Assembly (NCBI GenBank): GCA_963763775.1
Contig: CAVXPZ010000003.1
Span: 807,679-871,678, forward strand
Direction: 5' to 3'
DNA length: 64,000 nucleotides
Source: an uncultured Chloroflexia bacterium
Lineage (GTDB): Bacteria > Chloroflexota > Limnocylindria > Limnocylindrales > CSP1-4
Of the stretch, positions 14,973 to 62,683 are shown one piece after another; position 1 is the stretch's first letter, and every line of letters begins with the position of its first letter. A program made the position numbers and the translations under genes. A model generated the notes under the pieces. That model ran no database searches and was not told the DNA's origin. It saw only the letters and a program-made list of their open reading frames with translations.

Positions 14973-16269
14973 CTATGGCGCGAGTCGCTGGTGGCTCGGA
15001 TAGCTGTGGGAATCCCAAGGCGTTGGCTTCGACGCACCCGTCGCAGGGTCCCAGAGCACCTGCGCCGAGCGGTTGCCGTTCGCATCGGTCGTCGTCCCGA
15101 GGATCACCGAATCGTCGGGTGCCCACGCCCACGCGGAGCAACACGCCCCCTCGACATCGCCGGCGTACTGCATCTCGATGCCCGGCCCGCTGCCGTCGGC
15201 CGGGATCGCGACCATGCGGGCCCCAGCGAACCCGCTGCCATAGCCTCGGATCATCGCGAGCCGCTTGCTGTCGTTGGACCAGGCGAAGCCCGCGTTCCAG
15301 TGCTCGGACGAGTCCACGACGATGTCATGCGTGCCATCGGCGTGCATGACGTGCATCCGGGCGGAGACGTCGTCCGAGTCCTGCCACGCGTTGTAGGTCA
15401 GGAGGGTGCCATCGGGCGAGAAGACCGGACGGTTCATCGAGCCGACGGGGTCCGCCGGCACGATCGGTCGCAGATGGGATCCGTCAGGGCGAACGGCGTA
15501 GATCGCGTCGCGGTCGCCGACGTAGCGAGTCCCGACGAACGCGATCTCGTCGCCGAGTGGTGCTCGATACGACGGGTCGACGGCGATCATCCCGACGTTG
15601 ACCTGGTGGAATGCGGTCCCATCCGACCGGGCGATGAACATCGCGGGCTCCGTCGGAGCCGATACCGGCGGCGACGCGCGCTGTCCCGCCGATCAGGATC
15701 TCCATCCCGTCGGGCGAGAACGCATACGAGTCGAGGGTCAGGAATTCGCTCGGCGTGACCCGCGTGAGGCCGCTGCCGTCGGGTCCCACCACGTATAGCG
15801 ACGTGCCGCCGGAATCGGTCTTGCGGGCGAAGGCGATCTTCGTGCCGTCGAGCGACCAGCGAGGTTCCGTGTCGGTCGTGGCACCGGTCACGATGGCCGT
15901 GGTCTGGCCGGTGACCTGGTCTCCGACGTAGATGTCGCCATCCCGTTCGAACGCGATCAGGCCGTTCGCGGCCGGGCCGAATGGTGACGGCAGTCGGTGC
16001 GGCAAGGCCCCGACGACCACGATCGTGCCCACGAGGAGGGCGAGGAGGACGAGCGCCACGCCGAGGGTCCGCCACGGAAGCCCTGGGACGCGGACGCGCT
16101 CGCTTGCGATGTCTGCCATGGGAAGCCACCTTCCTGGGAACGTCCAGGCGGGCCGCTGGCGCGTGCCGGCGGTCCGGCGGACGATGTCGTCTCGGTAGGG
16201 GAGCTCCGGCTGGAGATAGAGGTCCAGCAGGAGATCGGGGAGGGCGCGTTCGATTCGATCGGTCGTCAT
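14973..16269 (-). CDS. putative anti-sigma/sensor 1: N-terminal cytoplasmic domain, TM helix, TolB-like (PD40) propeller; frameshift near 15650
   Basis: QRPAWTFPGRWLPM, TM helix, PFGPAANG, repeated WSLDG/FSPDG/WSNDS/WAPDD blades; ATGA overlap with sigma 1. Confidence 0.85.
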
Positions 16270-16829
16270 GCGACCTGCCCTCCGGTCACGGTGGCCCGGG
16301 CCGGTGTGGTCTCGGCTGCGGCCGTCGCTCGCATCGCGGCGAGTGCGTAGTGCAGCCGGGACTTCGCGGTCCCGAGCGGGATCCCCAGGGATGCGGCCAC
16401 CTCCTGCAGCGGCATCCCCAGCAGGTAGTGCATAGCGACGACCGCTCGGTGCCCCGGGTCCAGGCGTCCGAGCGCTTGGTCGACGAGGTCGCGGTCGGCG
16501 AGGGCACCGGCGATGTCCGCGCCGGACGGCATGTCGATCGGGGTGAGCTCGACCTCGATCGCGCGCCGCCGTCGCCGGCGGAGGAGGTCGAGGCAGGAGT
16601 TGACGGTCAGCTTGTGGAGCCAGCCGTCGAATCGGTCAGGGTCACGAAGGCCCGGCAGGTCTCGCCAGGCCCGGATGAGGGCCTCCTGGACCGCATCGCG
16701 CGCGAGCTCGGGGTCCCGGAGGATGAGGCGAGCGGCCGCGTCCAGCCGCGCGAGGCGCAGGTCGACGAGATCGGCGAAGGCGTCATGATCGCCTCGCTTC
16801 GCTCGTTCGACGCGGTCTCGCTGGTCCAC
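16266..16829 (-). CDS. ECF RNA polymerase sigma factor 1
   Basis: Region 2 ARDAVQEALIRAW..RFDGWL and region 4 EVAASLGIPLGTAKSRLHYA; GTG start. Confidence 0.95.
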   Translation of the reverse strand: MDQRDRVERAKRGDHDAFADLVDLRLARLDAAARLILRDPELARDAVQEALIRAWRDLPGLRDPDRFDGWLHKLTVNSCLDLLRRRRRRAIEVELTPIDMPSGADIAGALADRDLVDQALGRLDPGHRAVVAMHYLLGMPLQEVAASLGIPLGTAKSRLHYALAAMRATAAAETTPARATVTGGQVA

Positions 16830-16875
16830 GGTCGCCTCGGTCTTCGGCACGGCTCGTGGTGGTCGTGCTCGAAGG

Positions 16876-16905
16876 GTATGGCGCCGCCGTCGCGCGAAAG
16901 GTTCA
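16876..16905 (-). promoter_or_regulatory. ECF-type promoter of cassette 1
   Basis: TGAACC-17-GCCATAC; motif shared by all nine cassettes. Confidence 0.75.
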
Positions 16906-16936
16906 ACGGCCCGGTCGACGGGTCCACCTACCCACG

Positions 16937-17062
16937 GGCCGGGTACTCCAAGTACCCGTTTCGCGACGTCTTCCTCGTGGTCGCCCACCGGATCGACACG
17001 CGGCTGTCGGAATCGCGACTCGTCCACGCTCGGAAGTCCGGGAACCGGGACTGACCGTTGCC
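16937..17062. repeat. palindromic intergenic repeat, copy R2
   Basis: CGGGTACT-CCA-AGTACCCG ... CTCGTGG ... CCACGCTCGG ... CCGGGACTGACCGTT. Confidence 0.85.
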
Positions 17063-60711: not shown

Positions 60712-60778
60712 GCGCCTGACGATCCGTTCCCGACCGGTCTCCGCCACGGGGGCCGGTCGTTCGATTCCCAGGCCGACA

Positions 60779-60808
60779 TGAACGTTTCGCCTCGAGCCGG
60801 CTCCATAC
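60779..60808 (+). promoter_or_regulatory. ECF-type promoter of cassette 9
   Basis: TGAACG-17-TCCATAC. Confidence 0.75.
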
Positions 60809-60851
60809 TCGGTGAAGGGGCCAACCGGGCTCCACGACCCTGGGGTCGGAC

Positions 60852-61406
60852 ATGCAGGCCGAGCTCGTCGAGCGAGCGAGACGCGGGGATCAGGAAGCGT
60901 TCGCCTCGATCGCCGCCGCCTCGGTCGACCGCTGCTATGCCCTCGCGTACCGCATCCTGCGTGACCCGCATCGAGCGCAGGACGCCGCTCAGCAGGCACT
61001 GCTCGGCGCGTGGCGCGACCTGCCTCGCCTCCGTGACATCGACCGGTTCGATGCGTGGCTGTACCGCCTGGTCGTCCACGCCTGCTATGCCGAATCCCGT
61101 GGCGACCGGCGTTGGAACGCCCGCGTCCGCCTCATCTCCAACGACCTTCCCGACAGTCCCGACGTGGCGCGCTCCGTCGCTGCGCGGGACGAACTCGATG
61201 GCGCCTTCCGCGAGCTGACTCCGGAACAGCGAGCGGTGGTCGTCCTGCACCACCACCTGGGCTATCCCCTAAAGGAGATCGCGGAGATCCTGGGCATCCC
61301 CACCGGGACCGCGCGGTCCCGACTCCACTACGCGGTCCGTCAGCTGCGGACCGTGCTCGACGCGGACGATCGTCTCCCGGCGACGTCGAAGGAGCGATCC
61401 GCATGA
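60852..61406 (+). CDS. ECF RNA polymerase sigma factor 9
   Basis: AQDAAQQALLGAW and GIPTGTARSRLHYA. Confidence 0.95.
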   Translation: MQAELVERARRGDQEAFASIAAASVDRCYALAYRILRDPHRAQDAAQQALLGAWRDLPRLRDIDRFDAWLYRLVVHACYAESRGDRRWNARVRLISNDLPDSPDVARSVAARDELDGAFRELTPEQRAVVVLHHHLGYPLKEIAEILGIPTGTARSRLHYAVRQLRTVLDADDRLPATSKERSA

Positions 61407-62683
61407 CCACCTTCGATCGAGATCCCTTGTTCGACCCGCGCATCAGCGACTGGCTCCAAGACGACCCGGATCGATCGCCGGACATCGTCCTCGAGACCGT
61501 CACGGCCGCGTTCCGGTCGATCCCACAACGGCGCGCCGCGCGCGTGCCGTGGAGGTTTCCAACGATGTCCATGCCAACACGCGTCGCGGCGCTCGTCGCC
61601 GTCGGCGCCTTGGTGATCGCGGGAATGCTCGTGGTCACTGGGTCCGGGGGACGACCCGAACCGGTGCCGACGGCGCCGGCCCAGGTCGCCACGAGCGCCA
61701 GTCCGACGTCTTCTACGGTCGCCCTCGATCTTCCCGCCAGGTTCAGTTCGCCGCAGTACGGGTACACCATGGCGGTCGCACCCGACTGGGACATCACGCC
61801 GGCGAAGCTGACGTGGAGCGGGCCCGACAACAACCCTATCGACACCGACACCATCAGCTTTCCCGACGGCGGCGGGATCACTGCGGGCTCTGAAGCATTC
61901 CGCCCAGGCCAGACGTACGCGCAATGGCAGAACGAGTTCCAGCCGCCGTCGCTCATCGGTGGCTGCCATGGCACAGGGCCGGACGCTTGGCCGCCCATCC
62001 AGGTCGGCGACCACGCCGGTGGGTGGCAGCAGATGTGCGGCGGAAACGGCGAGGCGGTGGTCCAGGATGGCGGCCGCGCCTACGTCTTCACGTTCAGCCC
62101 TGGCAGCGGTATCGGGGCCGTCACCTTCGACGAGTTCAAGCAGATCCTCGGAACGGTCACGTTCGACCCGACGGCCGTCCCGTCCGCTCCACCGCCGCCC
62201 ACGTTGGGCAAGGACTTCACATCGAAGCGCTACGGATACTCGTTATCGCATCCGTCCGAGTTCACCGTCTCGCAGGCGGGGAAGGCGGTTAGCGGGTTCG
62301 TGCCGGATCCGACCGGCCCCGAGGTGGACGCCATCTCCAGCGACTCAGCCCGCCTGGTCGTCTGGTCCGACGCGCTCGCGTCTGGTCAGACGTTTGACGC
62401 TTGGGCCAAGGCCTATTGCGCGGCGCGGCGGACAGAGTGGACGCAACCGTGTGACGGCGCGCCGGCGAACTGGCGCGAGATCCCGCTGGCGTCCGGGACG
62501 GCTTATCTCATGGTCGACGGCGACTCCGCAGGAACCTATCTGCACGACGAGAGCCGGCTGTTCGTGGCCACGGCAACCCAGGGCGATCGTGCCTACGCCA
62601 TCACGATGGACGGCGACCTCGATGAAGACCTGTTCGTCGCGATCCTCGCATCGATGCAGCTCGACCCCGCATCGGCCAAGTAG
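61403..62683 (+). CDS. putative anti-sigma/sensor 9 with two PsbP-like ectodomains
   Basis: WLQDDPDRSPD..PQRR..PWRFPTM, TM helix, two F(S/T)S..YGY domains. Confidence 0.85.
   Translation: MTTFDRDPLFDPRISDWLQDDPDRSPDIVLETVTAAFRSIPQRRAARVPWRFPTMSMPTRVAALVAVGALVIAGMLVVTGSGGRPEPVPTAPAQVATSASPTSSTVALDLPARFSSPQYGYTMAVAPDWDITPAKLTWSGPDNNPIDTDTISFPDGGGITAGSEAFRPGQTYAQWQNEFQPPSLIGGCHGTGPDAWPPIQVGDHAGGWQQMCGGNGEAVVQDGGRAYVFTFSPGSGIGAVTFDEFKQILGTVTFDPTAVPSAPPPPTLGKDFTSKRYGYSLSHPSEFTVSQAGKAVSGFVPDPTGPEVDAISSDSARLVVWSDALASGQTFDAWAKAYCAARRTEWTQPCDGAPANWREIPLASGTAYLMVDGDSAGTYLHDESRLFVATATQGDRAYAITMDGDLDEDLFVAILASMQLDPASAK

Follow-up and report, generated by a model that had tools for sequence, protein, structure and literature searches.

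Bacteria rely on pairs of extracytoplasmic function (ECF) sigma factors and anti-sigma factors as one of their major means of signalling, and the heads of most anti-sigma factors are unannotated. According to the classification of Casas-Pastor et al. 2021 (PMC7826278), the majority of putative anti-sigma factors are specific to their group and lack a match to the anti-sigma domains of Pfam, and the clade ECF222/51/38/39 is described as having one common anti-sigma type. The supplement of that classification assigns to ECF39 subgroups +1 single-pass partners with PASTA or WD40-propeller sensors, and to ECF266 a +1 propeller partner proposed as an anti-sigma factor "of a new type". Class I anti-sigma domains hold their sigma factor by a "dual interface", in which sigma-4 is contacted by helix 1 and the core-binding face of sigma-2 by the last helix, and the class II protein CnrY achieves the dual interface with only two helices (PMC7406223). 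Here we describe nine cassettes found in the final 64 kb of contig C3 of an uncultured Chloroflexia bacterium (genome of 3.30 Mb, 71% G+C, in 4 contigs, completeness estimated at 87%); this 64-kb stretch is called the window throughout. Each cassette joins an ECF sigma gene to a gene for a membrane protein with a conserved N-terminal head, and we think that each is probably a self-contained, autoregulated ECF sigma/anti-sigma switch.

The nine sigma factors of the window (S1 to S9) are 182-188 aa long and all score above the Pfam cut-offs for Sigma70_r2 and for Sigma70_r4 or r4_2. They belong to the ECF group (group 4) of the sigma-70 family, and the five tested against TIGR02937 (sigma70-ECF) exceed its cut-off. 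Two subfamilies can be told apart, A (S1-S4) and B (S5-S9), with identities of 52-68% within and 41-50% between them. In all nine cassettes the TGA stop of the sigma gene overlaps the ATG of the next gene (ATGA), and cassettes 1-5 stand head-to-tail on the minus strand (14973-25307), cassette 6 being on the minus strand at 52572-54098 and cassettes 7-9 on the plus strand at 56286-62683. The original prediction, made from the sequence alone, had described nine ECF sigmas of about 185 aa with an ATGA overlap to a downstream membrane-protein gene, five of them head-to-tail at 15-25 kb, and this layout is confirmed. It had also read a conserved N-terminus and one transmembrane helix in the downstream proteins (AS1 to AS9), which we find as well: their N-terminus is conserved over about 55 aa, with M1, T2, Q39 and R48 invariant in the nine, and its core motif, the basic and aromatic QRPxW..P.RW..M, is followed by one hydrophobic stretch, which begins at residue 57-71 and lies within residues 57-89. 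This leaves a cytoplasmic part of 52-68 aa (68 residues in subfamily A). Residues 1-75 are free of Cys in all nine, and the HxxxCxxC motif of the ZAS subtype of class I is absent as well, the latter in agreement with what had been predicted. The features are listed below; every sigma gene carries the sigma domains and the ATGA overlap with its partner, and the promoters were recognised by their motif.

14973..16269, minus strand: AS1, receptor/anti-sigma with PD40 propeller, one frameshift, PD40 in both pieces
16266..16829, minus strand: S1, ECF sigma of 187 aa (Sigma70_r2 and r4_2)
16877..16904, minus strand: promoter-like GAAC-N20-CATA, 47 nt before the S1 start codon
17141..18430, minus strand: AS2, intact receptor/anti-sigma of 429 aa with PD40 propeller, residues 1-68 modelled on S2
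18427..18993, minus strand: S2, ECF sigma of 188 aa
19043..19071, minus strand: variant promoter GAAC-N21-CGTA upstream of S2
19115..20420, minus strand: AS3, receptor/anti-sigma of propeller type (weak PD40), one frameshift
20417..20977, minus strand: S3, ECF sigma of 186 aa
21028..21055, minus strand: promoter-like GAAC-N20-CATA upstream of S3
21278..22501, minus strand: AS4, intact receptor/anti-sigma of 407 aa, ectodomain related to AS5 by sequence comparison, 4 Cys
22498..23061, minus strand: S4, ECF sigma of 187 aa
23114..23141, minus strand: promoter-like GAAC-N20-CATA upstream of S4
23434..24762, minus strand: AS5, intact receptor/anti-sigma of 442 aa, beta module and PsbP-like domain in the structure model, 6 Cys
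24759..25307, minus strand: S5, ECF sigma of 182 aa
25351..25379, minus strand: promoter-like GAAC-N21-CATA upstream of S5
52572..53550, minus strand: AS6, frameshifted receptor/anti-sigma, ectodomain like the C-terminal module of AS5 (sequence comparison, tblastn)
53547..54098, minus strand: S6, ECF sigma of 183 aa
54145..54172, minus strand: promoter-like GAAC-N20-CATA upstream of S6
56214..56241, plus strand: variant promoter GAAC-N20-CAAC upstream of S7
56286..56837, plus strand: S7, ECF sigma of 183 aa
56834..58147, plus strand: AS7, intact receptor/anti-sigma of 437 aa with twin PsbP-like domains (structure model)
58769..58797, plus strand: promoter-like GAAC-N21-CATA upstream of S8
58843..59400, plus strand: S8, ECF sigma of 185 aa
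59397..60711, plus strand: AS8, receptor/anti-sigma with PD40 propeller, several frameshifts
60780..60807, plus strand: promoter-like GAAC-N20-CATA upstream of S9
60852..61406, plus strand: S9, ECF sigma of 184 aa
61403..62683, plus strand: AS9, intact receptor/anti-sigma of 426 aa with twin PsbP-like domains in swapped order relative to AS7 (sequence comparison)

As judged from a model of the complex, the head most likely binds its cognate sigma factor in the manner of class II. All three runs on S2 and residues 1-68 of AS2, each supplied as its own alignment, gave an ipSAE (interface score) of 0.82, and none of the three controls exceeded 0.01. Among solved complexes 58 of 80 attain this mark, as do 2 of 110 mismatched pairs, a calibration that is only rough for self-supplied alignments. 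The runs share at least 85% of their contacts, with a predicted local distance difference test score (pLDDT) of at least 66 for the partner. The best-defined modelled contacts bring AS2 residues 28-37 to sigma residues 18-23, 30 and 44-55 (sigma-2, regions 2.1-2.2), residues 6-26 lie against sigma residues 112-136 and 163-171 (sigma-4), and the interface also reaches AS2 residues 39-44 and 47. AlphaFold2 monomer models have two helices before the transmembrane helix, at 4-17 and 23-40 in AS7 and at 4-17 and 24-35 in AS5. With two helices and 52-68 cytoplasmic residues, the head would work like class II; in the models it has both the two helices and the dual interface of CnrY. Covariation was measured as mutual information with average-product correction in 78 non-redundant sigma/head pairs. 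Both residues fall in the modelled interface in 12 of the top 25 covarying pairs (2.85 expected for random pairs), and the top pairs link head residues 16-22 with sigma 116-136 and head 28-30 with sigma 23-30.

The two genes also travel together. Among 74 related loci of metagenome-assembled genomes (MAGs), retrieved with the AS2 family and bearing Chloroflexota-type titles except for one 2-kb contig labelled Saccharimonadales, an ECF sigma gene lies directly upstream of 64 of the 65 head matches that have enough upstream DNA, and the ATGA overlap is found in 62 of these 64 cassettes. In 16 pairs of the genome under study (two more, with frameshifted sigmas, were dropped), the pairwise identities of sigmas and heads correlate with a Mantel r of 0.81, a value attained in 0 of 5000 permutations, and within the subfamilies r is 0.68 (85/5000) and 0.62 (3/5000). 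The two genes thus duplicate and diverge as a unit, a result that does not in itself show contact. A constant signalling output, as had been proposed for the array, is not what we find: each receptor has its own sigma paralog (39-70% identical), with which its head co-diverges.

Seven sites in the window match the motif GAAC-N20/21-CATA, where shuffled sequences lead one to expect 0.38, and all seven precede a sigma start codon by 43-52 nt; the promoters of S2 and S7 are variants with CGTA and CAAC, respectively, as -10 element. Genome-wide, nine of its 15 matches stand before cassette sigmas, and it is present in 41 of 65 cassettes of the related MAG loci. A weight matrix built from 57 promoter instances has the consensus GAACc.TT ... 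GaCGCCATACcCTgTga, and scanning the genome with it gave 15 matches scoring at least 16 (1-3 in shuffled sequences), mostly the cassettes' own promoters and including further ones. The presence of the motif upstream of seven of the nine sigma genes in the window suggests autoregulation of the cassettes, a prediction that we consider well supported. The conserved block extends beyond CATA, as CCATACCCTGTGAGC in S3, S4 and many related loci (for example 21016-21031, minus strand), and this extension past the -10 element may include the transcription start or a leader element.

How do these cassettes compare with what has been described? Judged by TIGR02983 and by the published group descriptions, their closest classified relatives appear to be the actinobacterial ECF39-type clade. 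The best NCBIfam models for the sigma factors are TIGR02983 ("SigE-fam_strep") and PRK12518, both far below their cut-offs; for the ECF39-type TIGR02983, the five sigmas tested score 101-114 bits against a cut-off of 141.55. As described for the ECF39/38/51/222 clade, the +1 gene encodes a single-pass protein without a Pfam anti-sigma domain, the partner in ECF39 sometimes carries a WD40-type propeller, and both systems have AAC-type -35 elements. However, ECF38 and ECF39 are listed as 100% Actinobacteria (PMC7826278), while the cassettes are in Chloroflexota, and the promoter given for ECF39, CAACC (-35) with CGTC (-10), differs from GAAC-N20/21-CATA. ECF266, a group of Clostridiales, is also described with a +1 protein that has one transmembrane helix and an extracytoplasmic beta-propeller (PMC7826278 supplement), but it is a Firmicutes group with another promoter motif and a propeller of the Pfam family Beta_propel instead of PD40. 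Since an ECF sigma with a single-pass, sometimes propeller-bearing +1 partner has thus been described both in the ECF39/38/51/222 clade and in ECF266, the concept is not new. Of the groups with Chloroflexi among the supplement entries consulted (PMC7826278), namely ECF19, 25, 213s1, 237, 247 and 271, none is described with the architecture of the cassettes. The nearest solved chains to the sigma factors are the generic ECFs SigE, SigL and SigW (E 1e-17 or weaker), and in public data the 120 best clusters for S2 are 75-93% identical to it, with names that include "Candidatus Limnocylindrales bacterium" and "Chloroflexota bacterium".

In its proposed mode of action the head resembles CnrY, a short two-helix cytoplasmic head followed by a transmembrane helix; in its complex with CnrH (PDB 4cxf), CnrY contacts sigma-4 through helix 1 and sigma-2 through helix 2, the arrangement modelled here. 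In contrast to the cassette partners, which carry a fused sensor, CnrY is almost without ectodomain and works with a separate sensor, CnrX; the juxtamembrane motif QRPxW..RW..M is specific to the cassette family, and the head profile detects no sequence relation to CnrY among PDB chains. In its genomic organisation the family recalls the SigI-RsgI systems of Clostridium thermocellum, described with multiple paralogous pairs per genome (nine RsgI), a conserved N-terminal sigma-binding head, one transmembrane helix, varied extracellular sensors and autoregulated operons (PMC12203970, PMC10328401, PMC6582324). RseP-type intramembrane cleavage is shown for SigI-RsgI and conjectured for the cassettes. 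Unlike the cassette sigmas, SigI is not an ECF factor, and its partner has an RsgI_N head, carbohydrate-binding sensors and a known cellulosome regulon. No prior description of the cassette family was found in a literature search whose coverage did not extend to subscription journals, and the passages found of a Limnocylindria paper that counts sigma factors do not describe the cassettes.

The original prediction had left the anti-sigma domain without a known class. At the level of sequence this stands, as the head has no significant Pfam family, only weak NCBIfam matches and no PDB match; functionally, the complex model and the covariation place it as a class II-like two-helix head. Scanned against Pfam at E <= 10, one of the nine N-termini matches NepR at E 0.021, which we treated as chance, and the head profile, run against all PDB chain sequences at the same limit, finds no anti-sigma chain and only chance matches at E ~0.8. 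A look-up of AS7 residues 1-80 in the ESM Atlas returned only unnamed Chloroflexota-type clusters. PF26549, a family listed in precomputed annotations, was rejected as a description of the head, since it is also present in homologs truncated at the N-terminus, where the head is missing.

What has been shown so far is how the genes are arranged and conserved, their promoter motif, their co-divergence and a model of the complex; from this we infer a mechanism that includes actual binding, release, ligands and a regulon. Sigma factor and partner would be made together from one GAAC-N20/21-CATA promoter, and the ATGA overlap would couple their translation. Within its first ~45 residues the partner would have two helices that clamp the sigma factor, the first lying on sigma-4 and the second on the core-binding face of sigma-2, so that the clamped sigma would be held at the membrane and kept off RNA polymerase. 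Ligand binding would fall to an exchangeable module outside the cell, which is a PD40 propeller in some receptors and a single or double PsbP-like domain in others. A signal on this ectodomain would lead to removal of the head, most plausibly by regulated intramembrane proteolysis, and the freed sigma would raise expression of its own operon and of presumed other targets. Homologs of M50 site-2 proteases are present at three genome loci, which makes release by intramembrane proteolysis possible, though still conjectural.

Several observations weigh against such a switch. In the monomer models of AS5 and AS7, pLDDT is low for the N-terminal helices. The complex score is the model's own confidence, and as ECF/anti-sigma complexes are in its training data, the pass may partly reflect likeness to them. 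The covariation comes from 78 related pairs without correction for phylogeny and its top pairs share residues, so that the random-pair P overstates the support. The genome scans with the strict motif and with the weight matrix revealed no convincing target outside the cassettes, only a few sites near background, and no site-1 protease or release signal was identified. Finally, four of the nine receptor genes (AS1, AS3, AS6 and AS8) are frameshifted in the assembly and run into arginine-rich out-of-frame sequence.

If the clamp is not of class II, the head could be a shortened, zinc-free class I domain of the four-helix RskA/RsdA/ZAS type, in which the QRPxW..RW stretch supplies the later helices. 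We consider this unlikely, although 72% of Chloroflexi ECFs are reported to be associated with class I domains (PMC7406223), the 68 cytoplasmic residues of subfamily A and the modelled contacts at 39-44 and 47 leave some room for it, and the NCBIfam models NF052375 ("antisigma") and CU044_5270 weakly match 17 (best E 1.7e-5) and 9 of 142 family members. Only two helices are predicted before the transmembrane helix, the cytoplasmic part of 52-68 aa is short compared with the 101 +/- 33 aa given for class I (PMC7406223), and no partner matches zf-HC2, RskA or another anti-sigma family of Pfam at E <= 0.01, the NepR match mentioned above being the only one on the N-termini at E <= 10. The class I pattern of four helices in about 100 aa with a zf-HC2/RskA-type match is therefore not what these proteins have. 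As for NF052375, its matches cover the transmembrane helix and the low-complexity linker and score 17-23 bits, against 113 and 98.6 bits for true members, and we rejected the cassette partners as members of that family. The true members pair with two other ECF sigmas of the genome (C1:849792-851066 and C3:110929-112265); they are a second, different anti-sigma family in the same organism. It is also conceivable that the partner acts as a tether or as a positive regulator, and that the sigma factor depends on it for activity in the way that FecI depends on the cytoplasmic head of FecR. Such an activating partner would be just as likely to be co-transcribed with the sigma, to diverge along with it and to bind it in a model, but helix 2 covers sigma regions 2.1-2.2 in the model, the surface that binds the clamp helices of RNA polymerase (PMC7406223), which predicts inhibition, and no FecR/DUF4880 signature of Pfam is found. 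We regard a positive role of this kind as very improbable, and an anti-sigma clamp of class II type as the preferred reading.

The frameshifts could be taken to mean that the array consists of decaying duplicates and that the frameshifted receptors are true pseudogenes. About nine frameshifts fall on four of the nine receptors and none on the nine sigma genes, which speaks for such decay. Placed by three-frame reading and by tblastn with intact homologs, the breaks are single in AS1 (15635-15682) and AS3 (19645-19689), one by tblastn in AS6 (between 53225 and 53317) with two more by eye against the family consensus, and several in AS8. Housekeeping genes of the window are split across frames too, as follows.

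2805-5921 and 4735-5604 of the window: split genes for phosphoenolpyruvate (PEP) carboxylase and AhpC/TSA
28481-31045 of the window: split gene for COX3
55178-56194 of the window: split gene for FAA hydrolase

In PEP carboxylase, for instance, profile positions 1-427 are in one frame and 636-919 in another. Two cassette sigma genes elsewhere in the genome are also split, and intact orthologous cassettes are the rule in related MAGs. Since housekeeping genes and other cassette sigmas are broken in the same way, we read the receptor breaks as indels of the assembly, which is likelier than decay, although unproven; the idea of a decaying array is thus given very little weight. Indels are apparently frequent in this assembly, and gene calls made from it need care. 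Public read runs contained 5-7% of sampled words of the 15-25 kb array and gave short assembled contigs; one short-read contig spans the region of the AS1 break with a gap relative to the window.

The receptors of the cassettes differ mainly in their ectodomains. The diversified sensing that had been predicted is borne out: the ectodomains of the window are of three types or more, and the rest of the genome adds others. A propeller in receptors 1, 2, 3 and 8 had been proposed as TolB-like. PD40 matches agree with it, at 29.3 and 26.8 bits in AS1, 28.6 in AS2 and 36.1 in AS8 (Pfam cut-off 20.9), the match in AS3 staying under the cut-off at 17.2 bits. The score for TolB itself (TIGR02800) is far below its cut-off (64 against 343), so that these ectodomains are propeller relatives and not TolB. 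The twin PsbP-like domains suggested for AS7 and AS9 are found as two tandem domains of about 165 aa, in swapped order relative to each other. The model of AS7 (mean pLDDT 79.7, ectodomain mostly above 85) matches Apa, CyanoP, PsbP, Tsi3 and LpqN at probability 1.0, with template modelling (TM) scores, normalised to the target, of 0.47-0.56 for Apa, CyanoP and PsbP. For AS5 (pLDDT 71.8) the best match is 2xb3 (E 5e-5, TM score 0.57), followed by DcrB, LpqN and Mog1. The ectodomains of AS5 and AS7 belong by structural match to the PsbP/Mog1/DcrB/LpqN fold, and the PsbP-like ectodomains have no Pfam sequence match. Receptors 4, 5 and 6 had been set apart as carrying Cys-paired modules. Cysteines are indeed present (4 in the ectodomain of AS4, 6 in AS5, and 4 each in AS7 and AS9), yet these modules are not a distinct kind and are also PsbP-like: the ectodomain of AS4 is related to that of AS5 (E ~1e-12), both combining a beta module with a PsbP-like domain, and that of AS6 corresponds to the C-terminal PsbP-like module of AS5.

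The kind of ectodomain does not track the head subfamily, AS4 having an A-type head with an AS5-like ectodomain and AS8 a B-type head with a propeller, which suggests that modules have been exchanged between receptors. The best public homolog of the AS2 receptor is 64% identical to it, and among AS2 homologs the mean identity is 56% in the head and 40% in the ectodomain. From these comparisons, the sensor of AS2 appears to evolve much faster than the switch formed by S2 and the head. In some AS2 homologs head identity reaches 96%, and ectodomain identity is never above 64%.

A lineage-specific expansion of the repertoire had been anticipated, and a count of paralogs through the genome agrees with it. 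Sigma70_r2 matches 43 places genome-wide, nine in the window, and the head profile matches 18 places that correspond to 18 cassettes. Eight of the nine cassettes outside the window have the ATGA overlap with an ECF sigma gene, and their receptors include further propeller and PsbP types and several other ectodomains. In 301 genomes sampled across the phylum, in each of which up to 21 candidates were scored, the head was found in 23: the source genome, 8 of 15 others in its family and 13 of 15 in a second family of the same class, with 0 of 2 in a family of very small genomes and one weak match among all other families. Related genomes have 1-11 copies, and the source genome has the highest number, 18. 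The head family thus appears almost confined to one Chloroflexota class, with almost all of its matches there. Searched with the head profile, 1.84 billion cluster representatives yield 4263 proteins at E <= 1e-3, of which 933 remain at E <= 1e-10. The 150 best are 70-572 aa long and have the domain at the extreme N-terminus except in read-through artefacts. A Pfam scan of 117 of these 150, the shorter ones being left out, gave 25 with PD40, 1 with NHL repeats, 5 with out-of-frame sigma pieces and 86 without a Pfam ectodomain. Sigma/anti-sigma fusions, with the domain at 174-246, were considered for 5 of the best 150 and rejected, their upstream parts being read-through of the out-of-frame sigma 3' end; these apparent fusion proteins (P0262, P0273, P0291, P0330 and P0352) are gene-calling artefacts.

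The cassettes are a real, large and cleanly organised ECF sigma/anti-sigma sensor family, specific to a Chloroflexota class. It is tempting to propose, if only tentatively, that the ~45-residue head with its QRPxW..P.RW..M motif constitutes an undescribed anti-sigma family: a class II-like clamp fused to a sensor and independent of CnrY, serving as the main ECF control module of this class (4263 protein clusters at the 50% identity level), in which a genome would hold as many as 18 pairs, presumably insulated, and head subfamilies would have exchanged ectodomains. The family leaves the concept of ECF signalling unchanged. As an example it is compact and well delimited: the head counts some 45 residues, natural variants run into the thousands, and a single small genome holds 18 paralogous pairs. 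It could be used to study how paralogous pairs keep their specificity and whether two-helix, class II-like heads exceed the single studied case, and it could supply parts from which to build orthogonal genetic switches. In an abundant, uncultured lineage of soil Chloroflexota, the family points to propellers and PsbP-like domains as the chief extracytoplasmic sensors.

Contigs of soil and peat metagenomes contain short pieces at least 99% alike to window positions 14900-24800, and their joints skip about 2.0-2.5 kb, one cassette period (for example 20536 to 22639); related populations may differ in how many copies the array holds, or paralogs may have been joined into chimeras during assembly. 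The five-cassette array is directly adjoined by a gene for a LytR_cpsA_psr cell-envelope protein (12928-14505), and a caa3-type cytochrome oxidase cluster (COX1, COX2, COX3, CtaG and a cupredoxin; 28481-35103) lies between the two groups of cassettes. Cassettes 6-9 are interspersed with genes of the homogentisate route of tyrosine degradation (window 51406-52575, 55178-56194 and 62755-63978), whose products are an HPPD-like dioxygenase, an FAA hydrolase and a homogentisate dioxygenase. Cassettes 6-9 may have been inserted into this homogentisate cluster or may be linked to it.

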